From positions 124,001-188,000 of the forward strand of contig QPGO01000131.1 of assembly GCA_008632985.1 (NCBI GenBank): a stretch of DNA of 64,000 nt. Direction: 5' to 3'. The position numbers were made by a program, and so were the translations under genes. Within the stretch, counting starts at the first letter, position 1. Every line of letters starts with the position of its first letter. The notes under the pieces are model-generated. The model was not told where the DNA came from. It was given only the letters and a program-made list of their open reading frames with translations, and made no database searches. Positions 1 through 62,299 of this stretch are shown here, one piece after another. This DNA is from Psammoneis japonica. Lineage: Eukaryota.

Positions 1-284
1 ACATCACTCTCATTGCTCGCGGGCATGCGGTGCATCCACAGCCAATGCTGCTGCTGGTGGTGTGGTGGCAAGCAAAAGAAAAGTTGTGCTGTCAAAGCCA
101 AGTTGGCCACCCTGTCACCACACATCCAAGTCACCAAGTCATGGTGTGCAGGACCCTCTTGGGGGTGGTGCATGATGGGGGGCAAAACATCACAAGAAAA
201 ATGTCATCTTGTGCCAGGGGCATGCCAGCAGCTGGCACACATCAGGGCACCTTCCCGCACAATGGCCACTGTCTTGTCTTAAAT

Positions 285-866
285 GGTGACAAATGCTCTC
301 ACCAGTTGGCCCCTCCTGACATGGGCCAATGCTTCAAGTGATGAGAAACACCATGCTTTAAACACCATGAGTTCCTTGCTGCAACTCCTTGCTGCGCAGC
401 TTGAGAAAGTGACCTTTTTCTTTTTCTCACAGACAAGTGTTGCCTCATTTCAGAGAAACATTCAGCACCAACATGTGTGGGTTGAGAGAAGAGAGTGTTG
501 CAAGCCCATCCTCAATTCTCTTGCAATGCTCCTCACACCTCCAGCACTGTGATGAATCACCTCTCTTTCATCTGTGCCCAGAGAGGCAATGCTGAGAAAA
601 AGAAAAGTCTTGGCATTGAGCACACAGTGCACCCCCCAAACAGCAAAGTTGCCACTGGCATGTCTGCATGCACCCTGCCCAATCTTGAGAGATGAGCCAC
701 ATGAACAACAAGTGGGTGCAAAGAGTGGGACCTCAACAAAAAAGCACAAATGTGAGAGGTGCGCAAGAGTTTGTTGGGTCCAGCTGCCAACTTTGGGTGC
801 AAAACCAAAGCTGCCTCTGCCCCCTGCACACAAACTTCCAGCTCTTGACCAAGAGTTGGCAGAATG
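285..866. repeat. Old degenerate repeat, copy A left part (continues at 7760-8110 after the Copia insertion)
   Basis: Collinear similarity to 8980-9640, e.g. CCCTGCCCAATCTTGAGAGA vs CCCTGCCTGATCTTGAGAGA; GCACAAATGTGAGAG and CACAAACTTCCAGC shared. Confidence 0.8.
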
Positions 867-1053
867 TGTCAGCCCACCTGTTGTGCGATGGACAGACTGT
901 GTGCGGATGATGACCGGACCATTTGGACAGACGAGCAGATCTCTCTGAGATCTGCCTCTCACTTTCTCATCTGCTGGCACTCGTGTTGTCACAGTCCCAG
1001 TGCTCAGGGAGTCTTTCACACCTCTGTCATCATTGACCTTCGGCATTCTGTCA
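867..1053 (+). repeat. 5' LTR
   Basis: Direct repeat of 7568-7754 with 12 mismatches, all transitions; starts TGTCAG, ends CTGTCA; internal inverted repeat GCAGATCTC-TCT-GAGATCTGC. Confidence 0.97.
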
Positions 1054-1065
1054 GGTTGTGGCCTT
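1054..1065 (+). other. Putative primer-binding site (half-tRNAi-Met type, degraded)
   Basis: GGTTGTGGCC directly follows the LTR and resembles the copia-type GGTTATG(A/G)GCC PBS with TA->TG. Confidence 0.5.
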
Positions 1066-1233
1066 ACGCTGTGCCACAGAACTCTGCGCCAAGCTTTCCA
1101 TCTCGATTCATTTGTTTTGTGAGCTGACCGAGCAAGCCTCATCTTCTGTTCCAACAACAATTTTTTTCTCGCTTTCCCGGCATTTTTCACGATCGCAGAA
1201 ACATGCCAGATTTCTTCATGTGCATGACCAAAA

Positions 1234-4200
1234 ATGCCCTCATCAAGTGAAACCATGGCGTCTCCCGACCTTGCAAAGGCCGCTCCGACGTCCATTGCAG
1301 AGATCCACCATGAGTTTCAAGAACACACAATGACACCTCATTTCCATGCGACCTTGAACAAGATGCGCGCCGATTCAACATTTGATCTGGACCCGTTCTT
1401 TGATGATCCAGAACATGCTCAACCGAAGAAAGATTTTGTTGATGTGTTTCGAGATCACCTCGTCCACACGGCGTTCCCACCTTGCACGGTCCATCCTGTG
1501 GACATGCAGGCTGTCAAGATGATTGTGGATGAAGCTGCGCTCCGCATTGTTGACTCTGCCAGGCCTCGTGCGATCCGCATGACGCCCGCATCTCTCTCGT
1601 TGATCATCAAGACCAATCTCTGGGGAGCCACGATCAAATCATGTGCGTTGTCATCTCCACACACCACATTGATGATGACCCCGACATGACATGGAACTGT
1701 CAGGATTGGAAGGAGTTCTCCCTCATGCCCCACCCGCAGAACCCACAGCCTGCACCATCATCTACGACTGCTTCAGGACCTGCGACAGTTGGTGTGAATG
1801 ACTCAATCACCACCCTCAACAAGTTTGCGTCAAGCCACGCTCCGCCTTCCACTGCCTCTGGCAAGACCTCTGGAACTCCCGCAACTTCCACAGCATCCAA
1901 ATGTCTCTTCAATCCCAACACCCTGCCTCCCGATGTTTGCACACGCTGCGACCGCAAAGAAAGTGGTGCCGTCACCCTGAAGAGCTCTCTGGTCCCTTGT
2001 GACCATGGATTCCACCACTGTGTTGATGCGTCAGACCGCATCATTCTCAGTGATGGCACCCCCTTTGTCATGAGCTCGGCCCCCGACCAGAAGATGCCAT
2101 TCAGAGAACCTCCGATCTGCCATGATGATTCTCCCGCTGGGATGCGTGCATGGCACCAAAATTTTCAACGTCACTCCTTTGACTCGGGACACTGCGTGCA
2201 TCCTTTGTGGTGCTTCACCAAGGACCATGGTGGTGAGAAGGGTTTTGAGATTGGCAACGGCAAAGACGATGACTTGCCCCAACGAATGTATGTTCATTGT
2301 AAAGAAGCACAAAGTTCCCTTCACAAGATCCTTTCCAAGTCGGATGTGTTCCCCAAGAACAGCAAGCATCATCGGATTGTTGCATCATGCTGTGGCAATG
2401 GCTGCAAGGCTCTCAAGCAAATTGTCTGTGAGAACCACCTGGCTTTCGACCACGAAGCTGCTGGGTTGGTAGATTCCCACCCTGTTCAAGGAAATCTGTC
2501 CTTGATGCACTGTCACTCACATTTCAAGGATTTTCTGCAGCTGCATGCTCACATCTTCAATGCAGACTCTACGTTAGATGACTCTCGAGAGATGACTGTT
2601 TTTGTCAAGAACACCAAATGCTCTAAGTTCTCATCCCGTGCTGTTGGAGACAAAAGGAAGTCCCCTGCTGTGCTCAAGAAGCACACGGATGCACAGATTG
2701 TTGAGACCCTGTCTGACTTCCTTCATCAGTCGGACAGTCCATCTCTTGCAACTCACACGAGTCCTTGCAATCCATGCCACACATGGGATTGACACCCAGG
2801 GGACACACGTCGCACAACTGCTGATGTCAATTCCTTGACTGTCCTGGATGTCCCTCCCATTGCAGAGGATGCGGATGAGCCGCCAGAACCTGCCGATGTC
2901 GATCACTCCCCCGAGGACACCTTTGACTCCCTCTGTGCTGAATTGCATGACCTTGATGCACCTTCTGCAGATGAAGATCATCTTCTTCATCATGCTCACT
3001 CTGCTTCAGTGTACAAACTCAAGGTTGCTCCCACAGAGGCCTCCAAGAAACCATGCCTTGTTTGTTCTGAAGAACACTTGTTCCATGAGTGTCCTGTCTT
3101 GAATGACAACCCACACATCAAGGGCTTCCACACACGTTTTTGTCAATTCTTGAAGTGTGAAGTGGCTGTGCAAGCCTCTGAATTTCAAGGACCACAAGGT
3201 TTGTTGCCGCCTCATCAAGGACCATCTGATTCTCCGCCCAGCACTGGTGTCCAGTCTCCGGATTTTCAATCGGGCCATCGCAGCCAGTTTCGGATCTCCG
3301 ACGCAGCCCATTCTCTGCCCACCGAGACAAGACCAATGTCAGTGGGGGATGACCACGAAAGAGGGACCAAATGTCTGGTCATCTGCCGCTGCACTGCCTC
3401 TTTCTTTGATGACTGACACAGACTGCACAATGGTGTCAAGTTTGCCCCAAATGAGCGATGTGCTCAACTTAACACTGGCGCTGACATTGCTTGCACTGGA
3501 GATCGTGATCTCCTGCATCGATGCCAGGCATTTGCTCCTTCCGCCCCGTGCCCGCTTGCTGTTGATCCAGCTCTTGGACATGAAGCTGTCCCAGTCGGTT
3601 TTGGACATCTCTGCATCCCTGCGGAGAACTCCAATGGCTGTGTTGAGATTTGTGCACATCACCACCCACAACTCCAATCCACCTTGGTTGATGAGCGTTT
3701 GCTGCTCCGTCAGAATGGTGCACGTCACACGGATTGCAATGTTGATTGCATCCTCAAGTTCCATGATCTCGGCACTTGCAAGTTTGTTGCACGGCATTGT
3801 TTGCGCAAGAGTCAGGACATTGTTGTTCATGGGAAACTGATCAATGGCAAGTGTCACACTCACCCACTCATTCTCCCAGAATCACATGATGAGCTGGATG
3901 CATCAATCAAGTGCCTCAAGGCAAGTGACTCCTCCTTTGCAGATGAATGTGAAGCAGTCTCGGTCCACATGATTGAAACACATCGTGAATGCCAACATGA
4001 TGCTCTCTGCATGGAAAGAGAGTTGATCCCCCGAGCACATCAAGACACCCCGTTTGAGCAGTGCACCGAGAAGAACATTCCCGTCCAATCCCTCAAGGCT
4101 GATGCGGAGCACCTTTCATGGCATCAACATCTTGGACACCCCAGTGATCACTGTCTTTGCCATGCTCACGAACATGTTGATGGTGTCCCCAAGTTTGCAC

Positions 4201-7200
4201 ATGGTGCATCCCCCCTTGACACTTGCCCCACATGTGTCCGGGCTAAACAGACAAAGGAACCTGCTGGACCCAATGCCACTTTGACAGCCACCCAACCCCA
4301 CCAAGGTCTCACCGCAGACTTTTCTTTTTCTGGTCTCTGCTCCAAGAACACTGAGCGTGTCAAAGACTGTGTTGGGTTGAATGGCGAGACGTGCTGGATC
4401 ACCGTTTATGATCACGCAACGAAGCGCCTCCATGGTGTGACTCGTGTCTCGAAGGCTGCCCCCTTGAATTGGATTCGCCACTTTCTGGAGGAGCACTCGC
4501 CAAAATGTCCTGACAAACATGTTGTTCTGGATCAAGGAGGTGAACTGTACAATGATCTGGCGGTTTGGCGACTCTTCGAGGATGACTTTCATCATGCAAT
4601 TTGTCCCACTGGAAAAGACGCTTCGAGTCAGAGTGGCCCAGTTGAATGGAGTCATTTGACTGCTGCTGGTGCCATTCGGGCGATGCTTGTCGGTGCCAAT
4701 TTACCCGTCAAGTTCTGGCCCTGTGCTTTCCATCACTTCACTCGGATCAAGAATGCTGTGCCATCCCGGGGGCAGACTGCTGCTCCGATTGCACTTGCTG
4801 CTGGCCGGAAGGATGACTTTCGGAACTTCCACACATTTGGTTGTCGCGTTTGGGTGCTTGCTTCGAATCACCGTCCGGCAAAATTCGGGACCGTCTCACG
4901 CAAAGGGATTTTCTTGGGACACCTCCCGGACACCACCAAGAATGTTTTGTGGTGTGACACCAAGACATCGCGTGTTAAGCTGGCCAAGCACATCAGATGT
5001 GATGAGGGGATGAATGATTTACCCCACGAATCTGTTCCCCCGAATGTTGTTCATTTGCAACGCACTCAGGCTGGTGATGCCCTCCCTGCCGACACTGAAG
5101 AGACTGCCATGGATGAGCTCCACTTTCATGGCAACCCTTTCGCCAAGACCATCACACGCATCATGAAAGGACCTTTCACGGATTCCACTTTTGGCTTTTC
5201 ATTGGCCATGGATGATCCATGCCAACATGTTTTCGTCTCAGACATTCAACGTGGTTCCCCCGCTGCTCATCTCTTCTCGAACTTGAAGGTGACCCGCACA
5301 ACAAGATCAAAGGCGCGTGCACAGCATCGATTGATCATCAACCAGTTTTTACCCGTGACAATGCTGTCAAGCGTTTCCAGCAGTTGCGCGAGTCTGGCAA
5401 GACACATTTTGAAATGGAATTCATGCCAGAACGTCACTTGGACTCTCAGGCTCTCCAACGTGCTCTGATGGAACACAACATGTTCTCCCCTGCCCCGGAC
5501 CCTGACGATGAGCATGTCCCGGAGCTTGCACAAGCCGACACACGTGCCATTGCTGTGATGCGCCATCCTGATGCTGATTTTGAAGCCATTGACAATGATG
5601 ACGTCCTGCCACCTGTCCATGTTGACTGTGACAATGGTGTCGTCCACATCCATGGGATGTCCACCCGCACAATTGCCCCAGAGGAACAAGCCTTGGGTGC
5701 CTTCACTCGCCATCACCTCAAGAAATTGGATGCTTGGCCTGAATGGCATGCGGGCGAATTCAAACAACTTGACCAGTTTCATGAGTTGGGCATGTTTGGT
5801 GCTCCCATCAAACGTCCGAAGGACACAGTTGCACTGAGACCACACTGGCAATGTGACCTCAAACATGACGGTGCGCGATGCTCTCGTCAGTGTTGCGACG
5901 GATCCCCTCATGCTGCATCCATTCTCCACCGTCTTTGTTCAACATGCTCCTCCTGTGTTGAGCAACCCATCCAATGGATGTTCTTTGCCCTGGCAGCTAC
6001 GATGGGTTGTCTGGTGTGTGGCGGTGATGCCCGCGATGCCCATGCCCATTCTCCCCGCCCATCACATCCTGTCCACATTGCCGTTGACAATGCATGTGCG
6101 ACTTGGCACAAGTCTTGCTTTGGAAAGGAATTGGACAGGAGTGCGGCACTTCCTGTGCAACATGCTCTTCAAGGACACCCAGAAGCCGGCGTGCTCTGGG
6201 AGAATCACATCAATGGCATCTTGTCTGATGTGAATCTTTTGTTCCGGAACACTGCTCATGACAAATGCATCTGCTCTGCTGTGTTTGAAGGACACAAAAT
6301 TTTGCTCCTTCAACAGGTTGATGACTTTGCCATTGCTTGCCCTGAGGAGTCCATTGCCAAGACGATCTGTGACAGGATCGGCAAAGCCCTTCAATTGGAC
6401 TCGGAAACTGCTCCCCTTTCAAGCACCTTGGTCTCTTAGAGGAATTCAATGGTGTGGACATCCATCAGCATGATGATTCGATTGGTGTTGCCATCCACAA
6501 TTGCATTGATTGTGCTCACCTCTCACACGGTTGGTCCACACCAAGTGATGACAAACCACTTGATGACTTCAAGGCGACTCCGATTCCGGTGGATTCCATT
6601 CGAGATCTTTGCACTGACATTGGTCCTGCTGAAGGCACACCGGAACATGCGGAGCCACAACAAGCTGCTGGATTTGGATGCCGCACCCTCCTTGGTGAGC
6701 TGTTGCATGCATGTGTTGTCTGTCAACTCGACATTGGCTGTGCCATCACTGCCCTTTCCAAGTTCTCCACTTGCCCTGCGGCGGTGCATTGCAATGCACT
6801 CAAGGGTGCATGCAAGTGTCTCCGATGCACCAAACATTGGGAATTGAGCCACAAGAAATCTAAACGTGACCCGAGCCTCCCTGCCTGTCCGCATGAACGC
6901 TTGAGTCCCAATCCGTCTCTCCCATCATTCCCTGCTCCTGAGCATGACCATCAACTTGTTGCCTTCCTTGATGCTGTGCATTCTACGATGGGATGTGCTT
7001 GCATGTTGGCTGGTGCTGCTGTCTCCTTTCGTTGCAAGATGCAGTCGGTGACCGCTGCGAGTTCTACAGAAGTGGAATTCTGTGCTGCTGGTGCCACCGC
7101 CAAGCATGTTCTTTGCCTTTGCCATGTGCTGCATGACCTTGGTTGTTCCCAAATGAAGCCGACCCCATTGCATGTTGACAACGAATCGGCCATCAAGATC

Positions 7201-7398
7201 ATCAATCATTCGATTCCGACCGAGCATTCACGCCACATTGAGACTCAGTTTTTCGCGATTCAAGAATGGAAGGAAGTGGGCAAGATTGTCGCTGGACATG
7301 TCCCTGGCATTGTCAACCCCAGCAATGACCTTGCCAAGGCTCTTGGGTGGGTGCTCCATGCTCGCCACGCTCGACGCATGATGGGACACTGCCGTTGA
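1234..7398 (+). pseudogene. Copia gag-pol polyprotein, disrupted
   Basis: Zn knuckle CLVCSEEHLFHEC; protease-like LNTGA (~3468); GAG-pre-integrase WHQHLGH...CPTC; integrase DQGGE and FWP; RT QQVDDF; RNase H SSTEVE, DNESAI, RHIETQF, NPSNDLAK. In-frame TGA stops at 2790 and 3414 and frameshifts near 1670, 5295 and 6420. Confidence 0.95.
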
Positions 7399-7557
7399 TG
7401 TTTTTTCTGCGGTGGCCTCCCCTGCTGCGCATTGCCCCGTCATTTGACACGTGTTGGGCTCGGACACCTTTGGTGTCCTCTTTCTGGTTGCTCTGTTTGC
7501 ATCATCCCTGTTCTTGTTTTGATCTGCACTGCCTTCCATTTTTGAGATGTCACAGAT

Positions 7558-7567
7558 CAGGGGAGGG
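7558..7567 (+). other. Polypurine tract
   Basis: AGGGGAGGG abuts the start of the 3' LTR. Confidence 0.85.
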
Positions 7568-7754
7568 TGTCAGTCCACCTGTCGCATGATGGACAGACTG
7601 CACACGGATGATGACCGGACCATTTGGACAGACGAGCAGATCTCTCTGAGATCTGCCTCTCACTTTCTCATCTGCTGGTGCTCGTGTTGTCACAGCCCCA
7701 GTGCTCAGGGAGTCTTTCACACCTCTGTCATCATTGACCTTCGGCATTCTGTCA
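7568..7754 (+). repeat. 3' LTR
   Basis: Direct repeat of 867-1053, followed by the TSD GAATG. Confidence 0.97.
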
Positions 7755-8979
7755 GAATGTCATGCTTCATTGTTTGCAGAGACTTTGCTGTGGTGCAAGG
7801 GCAGAGCAACAATGATGGCTGCCAGACACCAGGACCAACAGCAAGACAACACATCATCTTTTGCTCTCAGCTTGCTCATGCAGAGTCAAACCTGAGTCTC
7901 ATCAACAACAACAATGTCAGCTTTTTTTCTTTCTCTGCCTGTTTGCAGCCAGGAGAGTTGTTGTCATCCCCAAGCCTGGGGCTTCACACCAGGGCTTGGT
8001 TTTTCCCTGCCAGAAGGTGTGCAGCCACCCTGGGCAAAAAATTTGCCAGAGGTGGGGGTGGTTTTTCTGACCAAGATGTGCAGAAGGAAGAGGGCTGGGG
8101 CACTCATGAGCATGGCCACTCTGGGCAGGGCTTTGTCTTCATCATCTGAAAAATGTTGTGTGGCTCTTGCTCAGATTGATCTGTGCTTGATGAAATTTGT
8201 GTGCTCTTGACAAGGGACAAGGGCTCATCAAATGTGGCTGAAGGGCCTTTCACAATTGGCGTGAATGGCAAAGCAGGTGAGGAAGTGATGCTTGACAAAA
8301 ATTTGTCTTGATGGGCACGTCATTTTGACAAGATGATCTTTGCACACATTGAGAGTGATTTCAACATGACTTGTTTTTGTTTGCAACCAATGTGGTCAGC
8401 GAAGCAGGAGGAAATGATGATGAACAAAACTTGTGACTTGCAAGTGTTCGTTCTTGACAACAGCGCAATTGCAACAAATTTCTGACATGGCTCATGTCTG
8501 ACAACAACAACAACAACAACACTCATTTGTCTCATCAACCTGCTTTTGCACTGGCTGCATGCTGTTTGCAATCTGATTTGCATGTGCCACAATTCATTTT
8601 TTCTTTTTGCCAAATCTTCTTTGCTCTCCATTTCCTGCTCTTTCCTTTTTGCTTTGTTGGCTCTTCTGCTGATGCTCACATCATCCTTTGCTGTCTGCAC
8701 ATGATGTTTTCCCATTGTGACAGTGCTGTTGCCTGCTGTCACCCTCCACAACCATTGTTCACAACCTTCTGTTTTGCATCATGGCCCCCCTGTTCTTCAT
8801 TTTGCTGGGTTGGCTCAACCAAGCTTTGCCAGCAAGAAAAGAAGAGAATTGTGACAGATCTGAGTTTTGCACATGCAGAAAATGTTCTTGCATTGTGTGC
8901 AGTGTGCACCAGCACATCTCTGGAACCACCACCCACACACATGCACACAACACAGCTGTGTCTGATGTTGTTTTGAGTT

Positions 8980-10030
8980 GTGACAGACACCTGCTGCCAG
9001 CTCTCCTGTCATTGGCCAATGTCCCAAGTGATGTCAAATGCCATGAGTTGCTGTCAGCTCCTTGCTGCTCAACTTGAGAGTGCCCATGCCTTTCCATTTC
9101 TCAGAAAAAATGCTGTGCTGTCTCATTTTTGTGCAACATCCAGCACTGGCATGTTTGGGTTGACAAGAAGCAAGTGCTGCAAGTCCACCCTCAAGACACT
9201 TGCAGCACTCTTTACATTTCCAATGTGGTGACAAACCAACTCTCATCTGGGCCCACAGAGGCAATGTGTTGAGAAACAGAGAAGTCTGGGCATTGGTGCA
9301 ATGAATGCAGCAAATTGATGCTGACACATCTGTGCACACCCTGCCTGATCTTGAGAGACAAGCTGCTGGAGTGATGAGTGGACACAAAGAGCAGCACTTC
9401 TGCAAAACAGCACAAATGTGAGAGACACATGAGAGCTTGCTGGGCCCAGCTGTTTGCTGATCTTTGCTGGCTGAGGTGGCTTGCTTGACATGTGTGTGTG
9501 TGTGGTGTGTGTGGAAAAGAAAATTGTTGCCAATCTTGGGTTTAAAACAAAGCAAAATTTTTGCCTTGAAAAGCATTTTTTCTGTTGCTGCAAAGCTTTT
9601 GCCTGTGCACAAACTTCCAGCCCTTCAGCAACAGCTGACGGTGTCATGGTCAGTTGTTTGCAGAGACTTTGTGCTGTGTGAGGACAGAGCAACACTGACA
9701 GCTGTCATCAGAGCCACCCCCAGGACACAACAAGTCAGCTTTTGCTTCTTTTGGCTTTCTTGTGCAGAGTCAAACCCCCGCCTTTTTTTTTGCTTTCTTG
9801 TGCAGAGTCAAACCCCCACTTTGTTCACAATGGCATCAGCTTTTTTTTCTTTCTCTGCCCATCTGCAACCAGGAGATGTTGTCACCCCAAATCTTTTGAA
9901 ACACCAGAGGGCTTGGTTTTTTCCCACTGCCACCAGCACAAGGCAGGCACTGCCACCCCTGGCAAAGATTTCCAGGTGGGCAGCTCTTCTGATGCCAAGA
10001 CTTGCAGGGGACAGAGTCGGTGAACTCATG
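8980..10030. repeat. Old degenerate repeat, copy B (uninterrupted paralogue of 285-866 + 7760-8110)
   Basis: Shares TTGTTTGCAGAGACTTTG, TGCAGAGTCAAACC, TCAGCTTTTTTTCTTTCTCTGCC and AGGGCTTGGTTTTT blocks in the same order. Confidence 0.8.
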
Positions 10031-11194
10031 AGCACCTGGTTGCTCTGTGAAGGGAAGTTTTTTCACCATCTTCCTTTGAACAGCATGAACTGGATCATTT
10101 GCTCATGTTTTTTGTGCTCCAGCTGAAGACAGCACTCTGCCTCCTTGCCTTTGATGTTCTTGGGAGTCTCATTCTTGAAGAACCTTCTTTCATGTGGTTG
10201 TTCTTGAGATTTTTCTCAACTTTCTTGTGAAACAGATGCTGCTCCTGCAAAGACATGTGCCAAGAAAAAGTCAACAAGGAACTTGTCCACAACTGCCTGG
10301 CCTCATTCTGTGGCACACTCCACAGTTTTTCAACTCTGGGCATGCAAGGAGTCATCAGAGGCAGCAACACAGTGGCCTCCACTTTCCTTTGTAAAATTTT
10401 GAGTGTGCATCGTTAAAATTGTCAACAAGCAGAACTTAAAAAATGCCAGCAAAAGTGCTTGACAAAATGAAGCTGTTTTTCGCATTTCATCTGATGTCTC
10501 ATTAACTTTTCTTGCACAAGCTTCAATCAAATGCATGCAATGTTCAGTTCAACTGGGATCAAAATCTGTTTTTTGCCATGCATGGCTTGGTTTCCTTTTG
10601 ATTGTGATCAATTTGAACTTGGTTTTAACTTTGTCCTCCTCACTCACGTGTGTGTGTCTTTGCACGTGTGCAGTCTGCAGCACTTCACATGCACGCATGT
10701 GACCCACCTTCATTTTTCTTCACTTTTGCGCAGCCTGTTGGTCCATGGCATTTTCATCACATGTTTTGCATGCACAATTTTCTGCACATTTCACAACAAT
10801 GCACGCTCTCCCCAAAGTTTGAAAAATGAGAGTGTGTGCTGTTGTGATTCACGTGGATCCTGCGTGTGGTCGCAAATCTGCAAATCAACAACCGGCCATG
10901 GCGGTGAAAGACTTCACCCCATTGGCCGATGACAGCAGCTCAACGCATGGTGACACCTGCCATCCTTCTGGTTGGTCAAGATGGGGTTTTATTTGGGCAC
11001 AGCTTGAATTTTGTGATCGCGAGTGTGCTGTCACGAATCTGCCACATCCAGAATGCTGAGCTGCTGGCGTGTTGTTGTGTGTTGTGTGCACGCACGTCAC
11101 AAACTTGCTTTTCTGCAGCATTGTCATGATCACGCATGTCAGAGTTTTGCATCCAGAATCATCACAAGTCACCATAAATTGCACTGTTCAAACA

Positions 11195-11465
11195 AGGCAT
11201 GTGCAAAAAGAGGTTCATTGGTTTTTGACACATTCGCCAACAACACATCCGTCTTCTCCAATTTCTGCATCCAGACCCAGAAAGACTGCAGGCGGTGCTT
11301 GTTCCTGCAGCTCTCAGAACCACACATGTGAAAAGTTCTTTGCCATGTGTGACAATCTTCAAAAAAGGCATGCACAAAAAGAGCTTCATTTGTTTTTGAT
11401 GTGTTCACTTGCGTTGCATCCATCTTCTCCAATTTCTGCATCCAGATCCAGAAAGACTGCAGAGG
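11195..11465. repeat. Two diverged direct repeats ~170 bp apart
   Basis: AGGCATG..CAAAAAGAG.TTCATT and TCTTCTCCAATTTCTGCATCCAGA.CCAGAAAGACTGCAG each occur twice. Confidence 0.8.
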
Positions 11466-11616
11466 CAGAGAGTGGGGAGGCAACCCATTGGAGGTTGCCT
11501 CTGAGTTGTTGGGCTCATTTTTAAAGGCTTCCCAAGTCTCTCTGCTGTTTGTGGTCAAGAGCAGCAGGGGGGGGGTCGACTGCAACAACCGCAGCAGCTG
11601 CCAATTCCATGTCGAT

Positions 11617-12295
11617 GGGTCGGGAACTGGTGGCAGAAGCTCCCGAATCGGTGGTGGCGGACGCACCTGCAAGCCTGCATTGAGGTTTCAATTGGTTGCT
11701 GTTGTTGTCCCACACACTCTCACAAAGTGTTTTACATTTCTTTGCAATGAATGAGGTGGATCAGAGCAATGTTGCTTCACATGGTCCTGAATCGGCTTCG
11801 CGGGGTCGGGAACCGGCGGCAGAAGCGACCGAATCGGCCGCGGCGGATGCACCAGTGAGCCCATGTTGCGGTTTCAATTGGTTGCTGTTGTTGTCCCACA
11901 CACTCTCACAAAGCATTTTGCACTTCTTTGCAATGAACAAGGTGGATCAGGGCAGCGTTGCTTCACCTGGTCTGGAGTCAGCGGCGCTGGGTGCACAGGC
12001 AAGTCCACACATTGACATCTCCATTGGCTGTGGTTGGCTCATCTTTGTCATGCTCTCACAATGTTTTCTGCACCGTTCGGCAATGAATGAGGTGGCTGCC
12101 AGCACTGGCAGTGGCTCTTCAAGAAAGAGAGCTGGGCAGCTGCTGCAAACTTGCCTGCTCCAGAATCGGCGGCGCCGGATGCACCGGCAAGTTTGTGTTG
12201 CTGTTCCTGTTGGTGGTGTCAGTTCATCCACATTGCACTCTCACAACGCATTCTGCACTTTTTTGGCAATGAACAAGGTGGCTGCAAGCAGCGGC
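11617..12295 (+). repeat. Four degenerate tandem units (~145-190 bp) with fossil exon/intron structure
   Basis: Repeated GCAC..G(C/T)(A/G)AG ... CTCTCACAA ... GCAATGAA(T/C)(G/A)AGGTGG. Confidence 0.75.
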
Positions 12296-13219
12296 ACTTA
12301 AAGAAAGTGAGCTGCAACTGCTGCTGCAGACTCCAGGGTGTTGTCTCCGTCGGCGTCATTCAACTTAAATGTGGACAACAAAGTGGAATGTTCATGGTGC
12401 AATGCAAATGATTTCAATTTACAGGTTTTGCAGGGATGGAGGGTGGGCACTCTCATGGAGAAAACGTGCCCCTGTTTCATGGTGAAACATTTTTTCTCGT
12501 GGGGAGGGGGGGTCTGATCCCACAGCACAAAACATTGATCTGTCACAGTTGACACATCATTGCCAGCTGCACAACCAATGAGGTTTGAAACCACAAAAAA
12601 TTTGTCCATGAAAGGAACAAAAATCACAATGAAAAGATGTGTGATGATCACTGTGTTGCGTGCTCTGATGGTCTTGCAAAGCTCTTGTTGCTTCTTTTGC
12701 TCTTTGACATGTGCCACAAGGTCTTGACAGCTCACATTGTCTGTGTCAGCTTCACAACAAAGAGGCAGGACCTCATTGACTGTGTTGTGCTTGTGAGTTT
12801 TCCAGAAAAAAAGAAGCCACCCTTTTTGGGATCTGCTGGGCTGTGCCCCTGGCATTTGCAGAGCGGCTTCTTTGGCCATTCCATGGCCCATGCAATGACA
12901 GACAATTGCTCTCATCACCACAAAGTGTGTCATTTGCGGGGCTCTGCTGTCATGTGTTTGGTTGTCAAAGAACAAAGCACAACAGTGAATGAGTCGTTGT
13001 CAAGGAGCCCACACTCTAGAGAGCAGAGTCATGATTGAAGCATTTTGTGAGCATGCCAAATTGGTCAACCAAAAAGCAAGTCGTGCATCTGCCAAAAATT
13101 TCAATGATGCATGGAACCAATCAGAGATGCATCGGCAAGAAAATTTTCAAGCAACTGCTGCAGCCGTGTGCAGCAAGTAAAAAATGACAACATGTGCTTT
13201 TTAAGACACCTGTTTTTTC

Positions 13220-14050
13220 TTGAACTTCCAAATTCCAAAGTGAAAGGATCCCATGACGGCACCCCAACCAACCTCACAACTGCAAGCAGACCCCAAGGAC
13301 AGTTTGAGAATTGCATCTGAGTGCTGCAAGGTTAATCCAACGGCATTGTGGGGTGCCATGTGACCTTGTCCCCAACAGCAGTGGACTTGCTAAACTTCCA
13401 AACTCCCAGAAAGTGCAGGGGTCCCATGGCAGCACCAACCAACCCAACAACTGCTGGCAAAGAGCAGCGGTGGTGTCTGCCAAACCCCAGGTGGCACTTT
13501 AAGAACCATGGCTGGGTGTTGCAAGGTTGTTGTGGTGTTGTGGCCCCATGTCACCATGTGCCCAACTGCAACAGACTTGAACTTCAAAAACTCCACAGCC
13601 CCACTGCAGTGCCAACCAACCTGACAACTGCAAGTTGAGGGCATTGGCAGTGTCTGGTGCACACCAGGTGTGACTTCAAGAATTGTGGCTGGGCATTGCA
13701 AGGTTGATGTTGTGGCATTGTGGCCCCATGTTGCAACCTTGCGCCCAACCACAGCAGACCAGAACTTCCAAATTCCACATTTTGAGGATCCCATCATGGC
13801 ACTGACCAACCTGACAACTGACAGCAGAGGGCAAGGTGATTTTTGGTGAACCCCAGATGAGACTCAGCTCAAGAGCCATGGTTGGGCATTGAAGTGTTGA
13901 TCTTGTTGTGGTGCTGTGGGCCACACATGACCTTGTCACCAACAGCAGCCAACTTGGCCAAAGGTCAAGGATCCCATCATGGCACTCTGGTGGACACCCC
14001 CCAGAGAAAGGCTTCAAGAGCTGTTGTTGAGCATTGCAAGGTTGATCTTG
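13220..14050. repeat. Degenerate tandem array, ~170-190 bp unit, about 4.5 copies
   Basis: Recurring AACTTC(C/A)AA, CCAACC..ACAACTG, GCAAGGTT and CCAAC motifs with units starting near 13222, 13392, 13579, 13762, 13950. Confidence 0.75.
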
Positions 14051-17000
14051 TGACAAGGATTGAATGCGATCCTGTTTTTCAAACAGATCTGGTGGCAACA
14101 AACTCTCACATCTCAGGCCAAACATGTCTCAGGCAAAAGGCAACCTTTCAATCAACTTGGGACATCAGTGGCACCTGCACAAGGAGCAGATTGTTTGGTT
14201 TGAAAAGCAAAGTGCTCTTGCAAGTGTTCTTTCCTGAAAAGCTTTCCTGGAAAGCATTCTTTGCAACCACTTTTGGCGAGGGATCCTTTGGTCAATGATG
14301 ATGAAACTCAATGACAAAGGTCAACATTGACCAGAGTTGCCCACAGGTCAAATGCATTGTGTCATCTGTTTGGCCCAAAGAATGTTCTGACAAAAAAAGC
14401 TTCGTTGAGTGCCAGCAGTGTGGCACCAGTCACTCTGCTTGTCCAATCTCTTGACGTCATTTTGGTGCTCAGTTCATCCATTGCCAAAGCACCTTTTAAA
14501 AGGATGCTGTGATGACTGTGGACCTTTGTGGTGCCTCTGCTGCTGGCTTGCACTTTTTGTTTCTGGAAGAGTGCCTGCACAGAGCATGTTCTGACACTGA
14601 TGCTCATTTGCATCAGCAACAACATGAAGTGTGTGGCAAACCTTGGGCACGTTGTTTTGGACAAAAAATGTGCCATGTTGGTGGGAAAACACTGAAGAAT
14701 GAGGCAGTGCTGCATGGAGAATTGGGCAACATGAAATGTGCAACATCCAACAAAAATGCTGGAGAAAATTGAGAGTTGGCAGGATCATGACACAACATCA
14801 GAGTGCAAATTTGTTGAAGAAAAAAAAAACTGTGACAAAATCTCACTGCAGAGGATGTGGCAACATTGAGTGATTTCCTTGTCTGGATTTGTTGTTTCTT
14901 GGCTGTGGAAACAAGACCCAAACTGCTGTCATTTCCTGGATGTGTTGCTGTGGTCACTCTTCACATGCTGAGATTGGAAGTCATTTGCAGCGCCACTGCC
15001 AAGAAAAGGAGCACGAGCTTCACAGCTCCACACCAAACCATTGCAAAGCCCTCTGCTTGGCAAACCCATGTTGTGTGCAAAGAGGCTCAAGCTGTCAAGC
15101 CTGCTGGCTTGCCGCACATGCTGGCTGGCTGGCTTCAAACTGGCTTGTCTTGTGGTGCTTGTCTTCAAAAATGGCCTGGCACAAACACCCCTCAGCTTTG
15201 TTTTACATGTCATCAATGTGGAAGCTTCAGTTGTGGCCTTTTGCTCTGGGATGTGAGCAAAATTTGCACTCTCTTCTTGTGCAGAGTTGTTGTTGGTGAC
15301 ACAAGGTCAAAAAGCTTTTGGAGAGTTGTTTCTTGGGTCTGCCTTCCTCAAATGTGCAGAAAGCAGCTCTGATCTGCTTGGTCTTGAAACATGATGAGGA
15401 AAGGCAATCTTCACACCAAGATCCATGCATGGTTGTGCCAAGAAAAGGAATTGTTTGTCTCATTTCTGTGAGTGTGTGCAGACATGTTGAGCACACACGC
15501 AGGGCTCACCGCCCTCCAACAGAGAGCATGAGATTGTGCACTTGGATGGACCTGGAGCACCATTTTTGTCTGATGACAATGGCCTCCTCTTCTGCAATGT
15601 CTTCAAAAAAGCAACACATTTTCTGGTGCAGACTTTGCAGACCTCAAATTCCAAAATGTGCAGAGGGCTGTGGCTTCCAACTTTTTCCTGTCAAGGTGCA
15701 AACCTGCGCAACTTCCAACCACCAGATTCACAGTTGCTGAGAGCAAGCTTTCTGCAAATTTGCTGCAGTTGTGCCACTCACTGTCAGATTCACAGTGCTG
15801 TCTCTCACGGCAACCCCAGTTTTGTTGCCTCTGTTTTTCTTGCCAAACAAACCCCATTTGTGATGTTCTTTGGTTTTGCTTTGCCCAGGCACATGAGTCC
15901 TGGAAGTGGTGCAAGCTTGCAGAACTTGCCAGATGCTGGAGAGAGCAAAAAGCTGCTGAGCAGATCATCATCCTTTTGAGGCACAAATGGCAGGCCAGGA
16001 GATGAGTCAAGTTTGGACTCTGGTGGGCTTTGTGAGCCACCACACCAAGTGCAAAAACACCAGCACCTCTGTTTGCTCCTCAGACAAAGGGCCAGCTGCC
16101 AGATGTGATGGGAGCGCCAATCCTTTGCTCAAATTTGCATTTTTCCCTTGTGCAGCATTGACAGGGCTCTGCCTTTAGCACAAAAGGCCAGCCCATGGTG
16201 TGTTTCTCATTGTTTGTGATGTTTTGCTCACAAAGTTCTCTTGCTTCCTGTGCTGTGCTGTTGCAAAACCTGAGCTGGATGGCCTCCAAAACACCAAAAA
16301 TTGGTCCTCAAGACCCCATCTCTCTTCTCATTCTTGGCTTTGTCCCAATGTTCAATTTGCTGCCAATTGCACGGCATCTCCCTTCTCACCCAACAACACC
16401 TCAAGGTCACACGAGTGCAGAAAAATCCACCCCAGAAAATTCCACTCTCCTCCTCTCATCTGTCATGTGCTGAGCTCCACCTCCTTTGCTTCCATCTGCA
16501 CACCATTTCCAATCTTCCAACTTGTCTTGTTTTGTTTTGTGTTGCCTGCCTTCCCAACTGCCACTCATTTGGTCTGCTTGTGAGCTTGCAGCACACCGAG
16601 CCATGCATCTGCTGATGACATGCACAAGCAGGCAAGCAAGCCCTTCTTGCTTCTTGCACCACCACATCCTGGGCTTGAACTTGTGCTGCTCTGAGATGAT
16701 TGCTGGCATCTTACACATGATCCTCTGAATGTGCAGAAGCTGGAACAGACAGAGCCAACAATGCCAAGCACACAATGTCATTTGAGGCACAAAAGGTGGT
16801 TGTCAGCTGGGGCAAAGAGGCATTTGGTGCAAACAAACAAAATTCTTGCAAACTTCAGGAGAAGCAACAACCAATTTGCAAGTCAATTTTTGCCATTTCT
16901 GGGCATGGCTTGGTTGAGGAGAAATGACACCAAGAGGCAGTGAGAGTGGTGTGGTGGTGTTGTGAACAAAAAAGTGCGTCTTTCTTTGTTTGTTTCTGCG

Positions 17001-18651
17001 CTTGCATGTGTGTTCACTTTTTCCTGGAGCACCAATGCCGGGTGAGCTGTGCAGCACAAACAATCTGGGATGCAGGCAATGGGTGGTTGAATGGAAGACC
17101 TGCTGACCAAATGAACAAATTCTCAACAAGATCAAAATTGTTTGTAAAATGGGGCATTGCAAATTTGATGCATTGCACGGCCATCATCTGAAACATTGGC
17201 CACCACAAAGAAAGCACCAGATGTGTGATTTTAAAGAGGCAATCACAACAAAAATGTTCACAAATCAAATGACAGAACAAAGCACAGTTGACATTTGCAA
17301 AAATTGTGCATTGGCGGAAACTGCAATCACAAATGTGAAAATTGCTTGTGGCCATTGTTCGCCATTTTTCTCATCAAGAATCAAGCATGGAAACACACCA
17401 CACAGACAACATCTTTGCTTTGCAGGGGGGCTCACAGCAAGCTGACACACAAAATCTTGCTGTTTTTTCATGCTGCTGACAATGGCGCTGTTGGCGCTGC
17501 GATGCAGCCTTGCCTTTTTTCCCAGGAGCTGTGCATTCCATGTCTTCACACAGTTGTTCTTGAGGCTTTGTCTCAACTTTTTTGTGAAACAAATGTGGCT
17601 CCTGCCAAGGAGCATTGGAGATTGTCAAAAAGAAGCAAAAAGAAGCTCTCAGGGCTCTTTTTGAGGCTCTTTCAGTGGCGGCAGCCAGAGCACAGCCCCA
17701 AGAACCTGTGCACAAGTCCTGCGAAGCTCTTGTTGCTTTTTTTGCTCTCTGACACATGCAACTCACACCATCTGCATTGGTTTCACAGCAACAAAGCCTG
17801 AGCAAAGTTAAAAGGGGGGCACAAAAGCTCTTTCTCTGCTTGGCCTTTTTCAGCTCAGGCAGCACAAAGCTCAGTTTCTAGCTTCTTGTGCGAGAGAGTC
17901 TTGCAAAATGCTTTTTTGTTGCCTTTTTTGCTCTCTGACATGTGCAACTCACATTGTCCATTTTGGCATTGCAGCAAAAAAAAAAAAACCAACTGCAGAA
18001 TTTGCCAGCTTTTTAGAAAGAAAAGAGAAAAGCTGTCTTGCTGTCTCGTCTCTGCAGCTGCAGGCACGCCACCAGCTGAAGGCCAAAGCCCAGCTTCTTT
18101 GGCCGTGTGTTCCACCACTGCACCATGTGACAAGAGGTGATTGTTCTCTTCACCAAGGAGAACAGAGCACGACAGTCGAGTCCCCACAAGTCCGTTAAAG
18201 CATTTGTGATCGCGTGAAATTGGTCACCAGACTGTGTCATCCAAAAATTTCTACAGCAAGTGGGGATGCCAGCCCGCCCCACCGGCACACGGTAAAACCA
18301 AGCAGAGAGCAAAAAAATTTCGGGCTATGTACTGTATTAGTGGCCTAATGCAAGTACTAACTTATAAATATAAATGCATACTTCTTCATTCTTTTATTCA
18401 TTACTGACATCAGTATATTTGGTTAAAACAATTTTTGATACCCCTGTTAACGTCGAAATGCGTTGAATCATCGTTCCCGCAAAACTAAATTTTCAATTTG
18501 AATTCACACGATCAAAAACAATACCAGGTTCTCCGTAGGATTCTACAGGCATTGGCTGGTTGCGCGGGAAGACGGCGGCTTGAACGGATCACAACAGCAA
18601 CTCACAATTGGAAGTCAATCACTCTCTTCGCTCATTTTCGGCAGAGCAGAC

Positions 18652-26029: not shown

Positions 26030-27398
26030 CTCGTCGATCCATCAGAACCTGACACAGTACAAATCCATGTACATTTCTACGTACGGCAAAGCTGGGCCCT
26101 TACAGCCAGATTAGATGCCCGGCAGCCTAGGGCCCTAATCCTTTGCGCTGCAGAGTCCACTTCTACAGCAGGACTGCTCCTGCTCTCTACTGCTCTCTAG
26201 AGTAGCTATAGTGCTACAGCAGCTAGTTGCAGTAGAGTAGAGAGCAGAGCACCCTCTCCACAGCAGAGTGGAGCCGAGCTGGAGTGGGTTCCACCAGAAA
26301 GCAGAGAGCGGCCAGAGCAGGTGTGACCAGCTCTGAGCTCCAGCTGGCTCAAAAGGGAAAGAGCAAGTTGGAGTGCAGGAGAAAATGGTGGGGACAGGCT
26401 CCCACAGTTGACAGTGTTTGACCCACCAGATCTCGATCACTTCAACACTTTCGAGTCCGTGTAGCATGTCCATGTCCGAATTTTGGATCTTGTCAGATCA
26501 AACGACGCGACACAAAGTGAACAACAACACGCTTTTTCCAATGCTGCACGTGTCAAAAGGATGAGTTCCGTCAATTGTGGAGTCACTGTGTGCCTGGTGT
26601 GAAACATCAAGGACGAAAACAAGAGTGCATCGCAAGTGAGGAGCCAGTCTGATGTGCGTGTGGTTGGTCTCTTGCAACTTTTTCTTCTCGTCGATCCATC
26701 AGAAATCAGAACCTGACAGCACAAATCCATGCACCGGTGCATTTCTACAGCACGCAACGCAAAGCTGATTCGAAAGAAGGCGTGCAGGTGGGGTCCTCTG
26801 CTGCCACTGCTGCTGCTCTCTCTCTCTCTCTCTCTCTGCTGGGTGTGTCTGCATTGTGACAGAGGGATGCCAGCCCAATCCTTTGCGCACAGAGTCCACT
26901 TCTACACCACTCTTGCGCTCTCTAGCTGCAGCACTGCAGCAGCCAGTGACAACAGAGTGGAGAGCAGAGCAGAGCAGAGCAGAGCACCCTTTCTACAGCA
27001 GAGTTGAGCCGAGCTAGAGCAGGTTCTACTGGAAAGCACTGGTAGAGAGTAGCTAGGTACGACTAGCTCTTGCTAGCTCAAAAGGGAAAGAGCAAGTTAG
27101 AGTACAGTAGAAAATGGTTGGGGACAGGCTCCTGCAGTTATTATAGTGCTTGACCCGCCAGATCTCGATCGCTTCAACACTTTCGAGTCCGTGTCAGCAT
27201 GTCCATGTCCGAATTTTGGATCTTGTTAGATCAAACGACAACGATATAAAGTGAACAACAACACGCTTTTTTTCCAATGCTACGCGCATCAAAAGGACGA
27301 GTTCTATCAATTGTGGAATCGCTGGGTACCTGGTGTGAAACATCATCGACAAAAACAAGAGTGTAAGGAGCTAATCTAATGTGCGTAAAGTTAGTCTC
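26030..27398. repeat. Non-coding tandem duplication (copy 1 ~26030-26672, copy 2 ~26687-27398)
   Basis: Shared blocks CTCGTCGATCCATCAGAA, AATCCTTTGCGC, GCTCAAAAGGGAAAGAGCAAGTT, AGCATGTCCATGTCCGAATTTTGGATCTTGT, CCTGGTGTGAAACATCA. Confidence 0.93.
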
Positions 27399-28413
27399 AC
27401 GGATCTTCTTTTTTAATTGTTTGCCCAACCGTGTTGCCCGTCGCCGAGTATCGTCAAGTTCTATATTATCGCTCTTTGAACAAATCGAATTCATGTATCT
27501 AAATGCAAGTTGTATGCAGCTGTTATGTCTTTTTCGTCGGATATTTGCTCTTGCCGCTTTTCTCATCTCGTACCGGCCATTTTATGTACATGTGTAATTG
27601 GTAGCATCTTTCGTCTAAATACAGTAGGAAACAATGTCAAAATCCTGCAAGAACGAAGAAAGTTGCGGTGTTGAGTTTGAAGCTCAAGAGGGTATCATAA
27701 TGACCGCAAACCAGCAATCAAAAGCACGTACCTCAACAATATTCTCGTTCCACCACTTGGGGCTATTGTCTTTGTCTCTTCCTGCATTAGAATTCTTACG
27801 TTCCGGCAACTTTGGAGATTGCGCAACAATCTCTTTCTTCTCGCGGCGTTCCGTCACGAATCGTTGCACTGTTTGTGCATGCTTCTGGGTTCCTTGTCGA
27901 AGTTCGAAAGCAAATTCACCCCACGTCATTCTGCTGTTGGCTCTTGGTCGGTATGGAAATTCAAGTGTGGTAACAATAGCTTCAAAGCTGCTCTTTGACA
28001 GGATGAAAATGATACTCTGGACTGCACCTTGTAGTGTTTTTCTTTGTGTGACGAACTCGTGACGAAAGCCTCCTTCAACATTCGATCCAACCCGGTTTGC
28101 TGGTGTTGTTCTTTTTCTTAATTTTTCTGGTTTTGATTTTTGATTCGTCAAAACTTGACACCGACCGTGACACGATACCAGAAAGGTGACGACAACATTT
28201 GAAGTATTTAATACTGAATATTTTATTCACAGACGGTAAATCGTACAGTAAAATCGATACATTACGAATCAAAACATTCACAATACTTCAAGCACATAGA
28301 CAAGCAATCCATCGCCCGCCACCAAAATCTCGCGGGCATCTCGCCAAGCTCCAAAGCAGTCATCGGCATTTGAGATGAGAAGAGAGCGGAGCTAACTCTC
28401 GTTTGCCGTCACC

Positions 28414-32244: not shown

Positions 32245-32439
32245 GAAAGCCATTTTCTTAGTTGCTGAACATGACTCAAGGACAGTGCTGATGAGTCAAG
32301 TACAGTTGAAGGGAGAACCGTCATCTGACGACTTTGTGCAAAGACGAGCGTACCACACAGCGATAAGTGATTTTAAGGTAGACTCATTTTGATGGCCTTC
32401 TACAAGAGGCGCTATTTCTTCAGTTTCCTTTTGTGTAAC

Positions 32440-62211: not shown

Positions 62212-62299
62212 TGCCGTTTGCCTGCTAGTTCCGGGTATTGTCGATTTCAGCATCCGTTGACAAACAAGTAACTACTCATCAGTAAGGTACAAAGGCATC

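Follow-up and report, generated by a model that had tools for sequence, protein, structure and literature searches.

As far as is known, hypermutation directed at repeats has been a matter of cytosine chemistry, be it the repeat-induced point mutation (RIP) of fungi, the decay of methylated CpG or the editing of retroelements by APOBEC enzymes. RIP (RID and DIM-2, in Neurospora and other Ascomycota) changes C to T mainly at CpA, makes TpA and lowers GC content. Methyl-CpG decay acts on a G:C pair, while APOBEC3 on cDNA and ADAR on double-stranded RNA act on one strand before integration and leave coordinated runs. Here we describe a stretch of Psammoneis japonica DNA of 64,000 nucleotides (contig QPGO01000131.1, positions 124,001 to 188,000; called the window below), in which a Ty1/Copia retrotransposon at 867-7754, together with other repeats and intergenic DNA, has lost nearly all of its TpA steps (TA below) to TG and CA. 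In genome defence, a repeat-directed process that turns A:T into G:C at a single dinucleotide would be chemically new.

In diatoms, DNMT5a maintains transposon methylation in Phaeodactylum, and DNMT4, which is related to the fungal RIP enzyme RID, is of no known function (Hoguin et al. 2023, PMC9998398); the part of that article covered here does not mention a RIP-like signature. DNMT4 is no candidate for the A:T to G:C chemistry. No account of a conversion of TA to TG or CA in diatom or other repeats was found in the full-text literature, a scope with supplements and most subscription journals outside it, so that a prior description is possible; nor was a report of TA-free copies of the diatom Copia group found in the literature searched. 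The matches on these topics were papers on fungal RIP, ADAR and dinoflagellates, and the SPLASH preprint (PMC9258296), in the part covered, is unrelated in content. The evidence set out below indicates that mutation at the level of DNA very probably operates in a raphid-pennate-diatom-like genome, where its targets are integrated transposons and islands of repeats.

Four blocks of the window have lost TA

TA is near-absent from four blocks that sum to 22,641 bp (o/e, observed/expected ratio):

1..18013, no strand: TA-free block A, with the Copia element and other repeats; 52 TA (2.9/kb, o/e 0.04), 379 CG (o/e 0.35), TG o/e 1.78, CA o/e 1.72
26239..26993, no strand: TA-free block B; 4 TA in 755 bp; made up of the 3′ part of copy A of a tandem duplication, a spacer and the 5′ part of copy B
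32437..34597, no strand: TA-free block C, intergenic; 4 TA (1.9/kb), 16 CG (o/e 0.12), TG o/e 1.86, CA o/e 1.97
62289..64000, no strand: TA-free block D, which continues past the window end; 2 TA (1.2/kb), 23 CG

The density of TA is 1.2-5.3/kb in these blocks versus 40.9/kb in the other 41.4 kb, and its o/e is 0.06 in 1234-7398 versus 0.60 in the unaffected 41.4 kb. CG is also reduced in the blocks (o/e 0.11-0.58), while TG and CA rise to an o/e of 1.5-2.0. When the four pyrimidine-purine steps are summed, the blocks (232-248/kb) do not depart from the DNA outside them (238.8/kb), and this unchanged sum implies that the extra TG and CA arose from TA and CG, which were not otherwise lost. The edges are sharp to 100-200 bp, with neighbouring genes a few hundred bases away. 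For example, the last sparse TA of block A is at 17879 and a dense series of TA runs from after 18014, and block C lies between an open reading frame (ORF) with a His_Phos_2 match that ends at 32241 and a Flavin_Reduct ORF at 34987-35604. The first-pass annotation, made from the letters of the window, had placed the phenomenon within the Copia element (1234..7398); this was too narrow, because the same state extends across all four blocks.

One effect of the loss is on stop codons. Block A contains 27 TAA, 6 TAG and 430 TGA triplets, and the near-absence of TAA and TAG accounts for the long open frames found in all six frames of TA-free DNA (87 ORFs of at least 60 amino acids in positions 1-9000 of the window).

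The Copia element and its tyrosine codons

The element at 867-7754 is a Ty1/Copia retrotransposon with long terminal repeats (LTRs), its integrase standing before its reverse transcriptase and RNase H. Its parts are as follows:

862..866, + strand: left target-site duplication GAATG; 5 bp identical to 7755-7759, directly outside the LTR ends
867..1053, + strand: 5′ LTR with TG..CA ends; a 189-nt match to 7567-7755 at 94% identity
1228..3416, + strand: presumed gag region in three open segments (1228-1689, 1554-2792, 2793-3416); open frames, named only from their position before the integrase
3447..5296, + strand: pol part 1, protease/integrase region; Pfam gag_pre-integrs and SH3_retrovirus in ORF 3417-5468; tblastn cover 3447-5402
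5297..6414, + strand: pol part 2, reverse transcriptase region; the RVT_2-bearing relatives P0014, P0021, P0022 and P0032 align at 43-53% identity
6415..7389, + strand: pol part 3, reverse transcriptase end and RNase H region; tblastn of the same four relatives at 44-49% identity
7568..7754, + strand: 3′ LTR with TG..CA ends; pairs with the 5′ LTR
7755..7759, + strand: right target-site duplication GAATG; identical to 862-866

The presumed gag region gave no Pfam match and no aligned relative, and among the six ORFs of the element a Pfam match was found only in the integrase-region ORF 3417-5468; the reverse transcriptase segment was without one. The gag-pol frame is not intact. Frameshifts lie at 5296/5297 and 6414/6415, and of the conserved residues, 33 of 34 Tyr and 25 of 50 Arg have been substituted. 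The relatives found are 76 diatom Copia proteins, the top match being 49% identical over most of the query; the closest that carry a species or genus name are from Nitzschia inconspicua, Cylindrotheca fusiformis and Pseudo-nitzschia (best identity 49-57%), and one relative, P0022, is labelled as a bacterial metagenome bin. Judged by these alignments the element belongs with the diatom Copia (CoDi) lineage, and the named relatives of that lineage keep a normal Tyr content.

As the first-pass annotation had stated, the element combines a scarcity of Tyr with an excess of Cys and His. Its six ORF segments (1228-1689, 1554-2792, 2793-3416, 3417-5468, 5216-6439, 6373-7398) contain 4 Tyr in 2209 codons (0.18%), against 106 Cys (4.8%) and 163 His (7.4%); Tyr makes up 1.9-5.0% in 72 of the 76 relatives. 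Those 72 were aligned by tblastn, which gave 736 columns in which at least five relatives were present with at least 60% agreement. Left aside were P0026, P0067 and P0068 (Tyr at most 0.4%) and P0009 (1.88%, just below the cut-off). At the 34 columns with a conserved Tyr, the element reads Cys (TGY) at 22, His (CAY) at 9, Phe (TTY) at 2 and Tyr (TAC) at 1, where Y is a pyrimidine and R, below, a purine. The codon tabulation thus bears out the proposed direction of change: the relatives conserve Tyr at these columns, not Cys or His. Codons that already hold a product dinucleotide are stable by comparison, with Trp kept at 15/15, Gln at 21/21, Cys at 13/14 and His at 30/33 columns (79/83 together).

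The dependence on a preceding T is also seen across codon boundaries. At Ile, Met, Thr, Asn and Lys columns, the first codon base is G rather than A in 21 of the 26 cases that read A or G (29 columns) if a T precedes it, versus 6 of 98 with any other base in front. Arg columns, by contrast with the stable codons, are kept in only 25 of 50 cases, with the remainder mainly His (8), Cys (6), Trp (2) and Gln (2); the loss of half of them, mostly to these four residues, indicates that CpG decay is present too.

The four altered motifs to which the first-pass annotation had pointed are all there, and in three of them the ancestry was Tyr or Tyr/Phe: relatives have Y in 43 of 51 cases at FWP[C]A, F in 26 and Y in 20 at GIFLG[H], and Y in 10 and F in 7 at DA[H]AHS. 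In VL[C]L[C]H, the first C replaces Y in 8 of 8 relatives but the second stands for Arg in 7 of 8, and so reflects CpG decay rather than a lost Tyr. The set-aside proteins P0026, P0067 and P0068, database entries from other sources with 0-0.4% Tyr, have His or Cys at 20 of 29 Tyr columns (9/10, 6/12 and 5/7).

The element retains 38 CG/kb (normal 56) but only 3 TA/kb (normal 41). Its flanks have 7-11 CG/kb versus 38/kb within it, which places the insertion of the element in DNA mutated beforehand; the element then lost TA fast and CG in part. The flanks on its two sides (365-618 and 7758-7892) are about 75% similar to 9041-9295 and 9642-9776, located 1.3-1.9 kb downstream, and the insertion site of the element therefore lies within one member of an older repeat pair.

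Direction and timing of the change

A second case, unrelated to Copia, allows the direction of the change to be read without any outgroup:

26132..27413, + strand: tandem duplication, copy A 26132-26686 and copy B 26873-27413, 77-81% identity

The duplication straddles block B, such that the 3′ part of copy A is mutated and the matching part of copy B is not. Opposite the 26 TA of unmutated copy B, copy A has 12 TG, 8 CA, 1 CG, 5 other dinucleotides and no TA, whereas in the same stretch CG is kept at 10 of 18, TG at 19 of 24 and CA at 23 of 29 sites. The comparison of the two copies thus gives TA as the starting state and TG or CA as the product. The single CG, at 26574-26575 of copy A, stands where copy B has TA, which corresponds to hits on both strands and would create a new CpG. 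Such double events are rare (1/26 in the duplication and 4/190 in a metagenome locus, L047, described below).

The LTRs of the Copia element address timing. They differ at 12 bases, of which eight form four adjacent swaps of TG for CA and the other four are C/T singles, and both LTRs contain no TA. Each swap represents one ancestral step with a different outcome in each LTR, which implies that the change came after integration.

The same loss in metagenome Copia loci

Scanning metagenome contigs with a Copia family alignment yielded 80 Copia loci. The o/e of TA is at least 0.55 in 61 of these, 0.01 in L047 and 0.16-0.43 in twelve others (two of them near-duplicates). With ancestral states taken as the majority of at least three normal relatives, the 190 ancestral TA of L047 have become 1 TA, 104 TG, 67 CA, 4 CG and 14 others, so that transitions make up 171 of the 189 changes. 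CG is nevertheless kept at 73% in L047, as in the controls L014 (72%) and L042 (71%), which keep 79% and 83% of their TA. Because TA was lost here with CG at the control level, TA loss must be a process of its own and not a by-product of CpG methylation decay. Methyl-CpG decay by itself was considered and rejected on these grounds, namely that TA is lost more completely than CG, and in L047 with CG at the control level. GC content is raised accordingly in the mutated elements, to 0.52 in the Copia element and 0.54 in L047, versus about 0.48.

Within L047, the change of A to G occurs at a frequency of 0.57 after T versus 0.02-0.11 after A, C or G. This bears on the broader idea that composition accounts for the blocks, whether through biased use of codons or dinucleotides, through selection that disfavours TA, or through GC-biased gene conversion or CpG decay on its own. 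TA is indeed mildly under-represented across the window (o/e 0.60), and CpG decay does occur in the blocks. But gene conversion does not single out one dinucleotide, TA is beyond the reach of CG decay, complete loss of TA in L047 is accompanied by control-level CG, and the conserved Tyr codons were destroyed in a dead element; we consider a compositional origin extremely improbable.

Graded states are found in six other metagenome loci, which keep 24-39% of their TA. The complete, partly mutated locus L056 has two 201-bp LTRs that differ at 13 bases, 11 of them at TA sites: seven are TA in one LTR and TG or CA in the other, four bases make up two TG/CA swaps, one is TG/CG, and one is a transversion. 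At the seven, TA is kept three times in the 5′ LTR and four times in the 3′ LTR. This corresponds to about 0.34 events per TA site versus about 0.004 per other site, or about 80 times the background, and the flanks of L056 have a normal TA density. The LTRs of this locus (2298-2498 and 10407-10607) hold more TA than its interior (11-15 versus 1-8 per 250 bp), many of their sites being in slowly mutating YTAR contexts. Along the loci, kept and mutated TA are not clustered, except weakly in L035 (P 0.05, at a lightly mutated contig end). In that locus, of which L037 is a near-duplicate, most of the first ~100 ancestral TA have been mutated and most of the final ~40 survive, as a domain edge within the element or a chimeric contig would produce.

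Other copies of the family and support from reads

Read set X1 (three runs from one sample and one study, with no RNA run listed as containing the window) was built into contigs from exact 31-letter words. Over the mutated blocks, contigs at unique depth (58-74), the same depth as that of normal DNA, agree with the window except for 0-2 differences per 0.7-2 kb; a contig at 17282-19236 bridges the edge of block A at 18013. The summed depth over the Copia element is 10-60 times the unique depth, which points to a family with many copies. Mutated DNA includes both multi-copy elements and DNA that is now unique.

Differences between the Copia element and the other copies of its family occur at 329 places, 282 of which are transitions. 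Among the 40 of these 329 that were listed, another copy shows the opposite outcome at 3242-3, 4558-9, 4920-1 and 6017-8; the last is a Tyr column, with TG here and CA in the other copy. The retained Tyr codon at 4548 (variant place 4549) reads TGC in another copy, and, again among the places listed, most other copies keep TA at 1196 and 5034. That the ancestral step was TA, as the first-pass annotation had argued, is upheld both by the relatives with Tyr at those columns and by these alternative outcomes at the same sites. The two frameshift sites are themselves indel variants in the family, with two bases missing at 5297 (contigs making up 86 of 264 depth) and an extra A after 6414 (102 of 810), and some other copies are probably in frame at 5297 and 6414.

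Single-site differences between the window and contigs at unique depth were also noted: the window has TG where the reads have TA at 12743, CA where they have CG at 13011 and CG where they have TG at 395, with a further one at 16248 in block A. These four may represent allelic or strain variation at steps that mutate.

Could the missing TA be an artefact, in which modified bases in repeat chromatin caused errors of base calling or polishing while the real DNA has TA? X1 is the sole read set that contains the window, of which it is probably the source, and its library type is unrecorded, which leaves some room for such errors. The contigs from exact words, however, reproduce the blocks at the depth and agreement given above, the signature recurs in separately assembled metagenome contigs and in P0026, P0067 and P0068, and errors would not settle on TG or CA site by site in a way that is fixed for each copy. 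An artefact is in our estimation barely conceivable.

Sequence context and strand

In the 12 partly mutated loci, with both strands collapsed, the fraction mutated depends on the base that follows TA (T 0.36, C 0.33, A 0.23, G 0.19). A pyrimidine at +1 is favoured about 1.7-fold and a T at −1 is essentially required; there is no preference at −2 and a mild preference for A or T at −3 in the same loci. Seen from the other strand, T to C is favoured in R-T-A. The same ranking is apparent in what survives. When the 12 loci are pooled with L047, TA is kept at 21% of RTAY, 42% of RTAR and 43% of YTAR sites. Of the 62 TA that survive in the window blocks, 32 (52%) are in YTAR, versus 17% in normal DNA (Fisher 6e-10), and 3 (5%) are in RTAY, versus 30%; TTAA accounts for 19.

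Given the context, sense and antisense rates are equal (0.36/0.33 in hot contexts, 0.21/0.20 in cold ones), and a one-stranded spectrum is not seen. A bias tied to the transcribed strand was also tried as an explanation for the excess of TG; the excess vanishes once the +1 base is allowed for. The predominance of Cys over His at Tyr codons (TAY) is thus due to the preference for a pyrimidine at +1 and not to a strand bias. The first-pass annotation had described TGY and CAY outcomes as interleaved, and so they are: the order of TG and CA in L047 forms 82 runs, where 82.5 are expected. A runs test on this order in six loci found no clustering, against a processive action along one strand. With the order random in all six, sites appear to be hit one at a time, without one-strand sweeps. 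The further claim that TGY records A to G on the plus strand and CAY the same change on the minus strand is sound in that both outcomes are real, but A to G on one strand is T to C on the other and the two are indistinguishable.

These data are relevant to the possibility that retrotransposon RNA or cDNA was deaminated by an ADAR-, ADAT- or APOBEC-like enzyme and the edited copy then integrated. The clearest cases are retroelements, the flanks of L056 have a normal TA density, and the adenosine deaminases known so far prefer a T at −1. Set against this are the equality of sense and antisense rates with interleaved outcomes, the LTRs of one element that differ at TA sites in both directions, and the presence of the signature in the Copia flanks, the tandem duplication and intergenic blocks without retroelement homology. 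Moreover, G is the least favoured +1 base, whereas ADAR prefers G at +1. Editing before integration is accordingly very unlikely, and the action on integrated DNA that had been proposed from the Copia element is corroborated by the LTR swaps here and in L056 and by the duplication and flanks. ADAR-type hyperediting of RNA in particular was rejected: a sense-only A to G change is absent, the Tyr columns combine 22 TG with 9 CA, the LTR pairs differ at TA-derived sites, and flanks and non-retroelement blocks are mutated as well.

A proposed mechanism

Our best full explanation, to which we assign a probability of about 0.6, is a repeat-directed mutation of TpA in place, with deamination of adenine as the favoured step. 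The mutation process itself is very probable. It converts TpA to TpG or CpA by an A:T to G:C transition of the A or of the paired T, acting site by site and equally on both strands within sharp-edged domains, at a rate of about 100 times background, such that TA is driven near zero. It is separate from the slower decay of CpG, and because that decay gives the same products, blocks of long standing are depleted of TA and CG alike. By this account the Copia element (867-7754), with its 5-bp target duplication, arrived by normal transposition in a block already mutated and was itself mutated in place, with 31 of its 34 conserved Tyr codons turned into Cys or His.

The chemistry can be proposed only tentatively, at somewhat less than even odds. 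Adenine may be deaminated enzymatically to hypoxanthine in DNA at 5′-T-A-Y-3′, to be read as G at the next replication, and the deaminase might be recruited to silenced repeat chromatin, which would make it an adenine counterpart of fungal RIP. We favour adenine deamination over thymine modification because an absolute requirement for the −1 base, combined with a weaker preference at +1, is typical of deaminases. Deaminase lineages that are restricted to or present in stramenopiles, some of them fused to Tudor arrays (deaminase-SAM-Tudor), have been predicted (Iyer et al. 2011, PMC3239186). These fusions and the Rossmann-deaminase fusions of that study are candidate enzymes, as are TadA/ADAT paralogues.

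Several points weigh against this explanation. The adenine-deaminase step, which we hold to be possible rather than probable, is read from the mutational footprint, and sequence cannot tell A from the paired T as the target. To our knowledge, adenine in double-stranded DNA is not the substrate of any natural deaminase. Deaminases of single strands usually leave strand-coordinated runs, and all six loci are at the random expectation; the absence of such runs means that a lesion or mark at each symmetric site fits at least as well. The limits of block B do not match those of the duplicated units, for which the explanation does not account. The partial states rest on metagenome contigs, which are possibly chimeric, with ancestry set by majority rule, and the support from X1 is not independent if, as is probable, it is the window's own source.

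A lesion without a dedicated enzyme would be the simplest form of the symmetric-site idea. TpA would be a damage-prone step, for example through a UV thymine-adenine photoproduct or oxidation, and the damage would go unrepaired in compact repeat chromatin. A site-autonomous, strand-symmetric pattern would be expected from it, and even the control copies lose TA more than other AT-containing steps (79-83% kept versus 87-94% for AT, AA and TT). Unrepaired damage would be hard pressed to leave block B with 0 of 26 TA while about 80% of TG and CA and 10 of 18 CG remain, to reach about 80 times the background in L056, or to stop within 100-200 bp beside normal genes; the defined flanking preference and the near-exclusive transitions (171/189 in L047) do not suit it either. 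We regard it as improbable.

The alternative in which thymine is the target retains an in-place, repeat-targeted process and changes its chemistry. A dioxygenase of the TET/JBP type would place a symmetric modification of the 5-hydroxymethyluracil, 5-formyluracil or base J kind at 5′-R-T-A-3′, and the modified T would mispair with G to give T to C on either strand, much as 5-methylcytosine decays. Site-autonomous, symmetric and randomly interleaved outcomes are what a mark on both strands of a palindromic step should give; the graded states (24-39% of TA kept) suit the slow decay of a mark; and the products and the constant pyrimidine-purine sum parallel CpG decay. T and 5-methylcytosine are both 5-methylpyrimidines, and one oxidase could conceivably act on both. 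Of the candidate bases, 5-formyluracil is one that mispairs with G, and a T followed by A is the favoured position of hydroxymethyluracil and base J. On the other side, the literature on 5-hydroxymethyluracil and diatoms gave dinoflagellate papers only, and the loss of TA in L047 without extra loss of CG shows that a shared oxidase is not needed. We also know of no loss of TA in the organisms known for such thymine modifications. A thymine mark is in our opinion unlikely, although it is the main rival of adenine deamination.

In either form, what we have before us is probably a genome defence of raphid pennate diatoms that writes A:T to G:C at TpA, by way of a DNA adenine deaminase targeted to chromatin or of a heritable, mutagenic modification of TpA that marks silenced repeats.

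Other features of the window

The DNA with normal TA content carries ordinary eukaryotic genes, among them SHMT, V-ATPase subunit H, Serinc, a P450, an ABC protein and TIC20, whereas the blocks carry none; 137 ORFs of at least 110 amino acids outside the six Copia ORFs were tested, and no Pfam match was found in any TA-free block. The SHMT exon shows 88-91% identity to unnamed proteins, 89% to Nitzschia inconspicua and 87% to Fragilariopsis cylindrus, and the window has the look of nuclear DNA from a raphid pennate diatom. Scans of the window for tRNA genes and Rfam families gave no matches. An open frame of 425 amino acids in block D (62496-63770) has no homologue and no Pfam match, and we take it to be a chance frame of stop-poor DNA.

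Besides the Copia element, block A contains a second abundant repeat:

10006..12673, no strand: high-copy repeat; summed contig depth 2300-5700 versus ~70 for unique DNA, with 186-bp internal tandem units (11612-11983)

This repeat is TA-free with moderate CG (11-24 per 500 bp) and has no Pfam match. Its 186-bp units are 82-85% alike, and five of the eight adjacent double differences between them are TG/CA swaps. Counting the four repeat pairs within the blocks other than the LTRs, the swap is the commonest double difference in three. Just outside block A, some 6-8 tandem units of 51 bp (66-88% alike) occupy 18985-19380 within an open frame of 624 amino acids (18502-20373) that has no Pfam match.

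Implications and comparison with known systems

The process described here implies an undescribed enzyme or DNA mark. Should an enzyme that deaminates adenine in DNA be behind it, that enzyme would have direct relevance to base editing, as a natural adenine base editor and a mirror of RIP. For diatom epigenetics, the process raises the question of whether silenced DNA carries a mark at another palindromic step in addition to CpG. There are practical consequences as well. Since TGA is the only stop left in TA-free DNA, false long ORFs arise in six frames and gene callers would be misled, and since mutated elements escape domain searches, as did the reverse transcriptase segment here, the transposon content of such genomes is likely under-annotated. 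The ratio of TA loss to CG loss could serve as a relative clock for insertions.

In its mode of action, the process is closest to fungal RIP. Both involve hypermutation of integrated repeats in place, by transitions at one dinucleotide, on both strands and up to saturation; both leave sharp mutated domains beside intact genes, and in both the copies of a family are mutated independently. The heterochromatin-related branch of RIP in Neurospora also mutates the linker between close repeats, comparable to the mutated spacer of block B. In outcome the two are opposed, because in the diatom blocks TpA is destroyed and GC content goes up, and the cytosine methyltransferase-like enzyme of RIP cannot carry out an A:T to G:C change. 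RIP of the fungal type was considered and set aside, as C to T before A is at the control level (0.04 in L047, 0.05 in L014) and TpA is removed, not made.

Methyl-CpG decay offers a different set of parallels. It too affects a palindromic pyrimidine-purine step on either strand, site by site, yields TG and CA, and acts in silenced repeats, here in the very same blocks; the difference is that the TpA process involves an A:T pair and is faster and more complete. With APOBEC3 and ADAR it shares a context-dependent hypermutation by transitions that kills retroelements, and ADAR likewise gives A to G, but the pattern here is symmetric, interleaved and post-integration, and is found in DNA other than retroelements as well.

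A further likeness, offered as a lead only, is to the TadA and ADAT2-ADAT3 enzymes, whose U-A-C site resembles the footprint of T at −1 and a pyrimidine at +1. TadA-type enzymes have a strict 5′ U/T neighbour at the U33-A34-C35 site, and bacterial TadA reads U-A-C; in nature they are known to act on RNA. Versions of TadA evolved in the laboratory do work on DNA, and filamentous fungi in their sexual stage have an A-to-I editing of mRNA that derives from ADAT. Taken together, these comparisons suggest that the TpA process works like a genome defence of the RIP type in action, yet it fails the defining features of RIP, of ADAR or APOBEC editing and of CpG decay.

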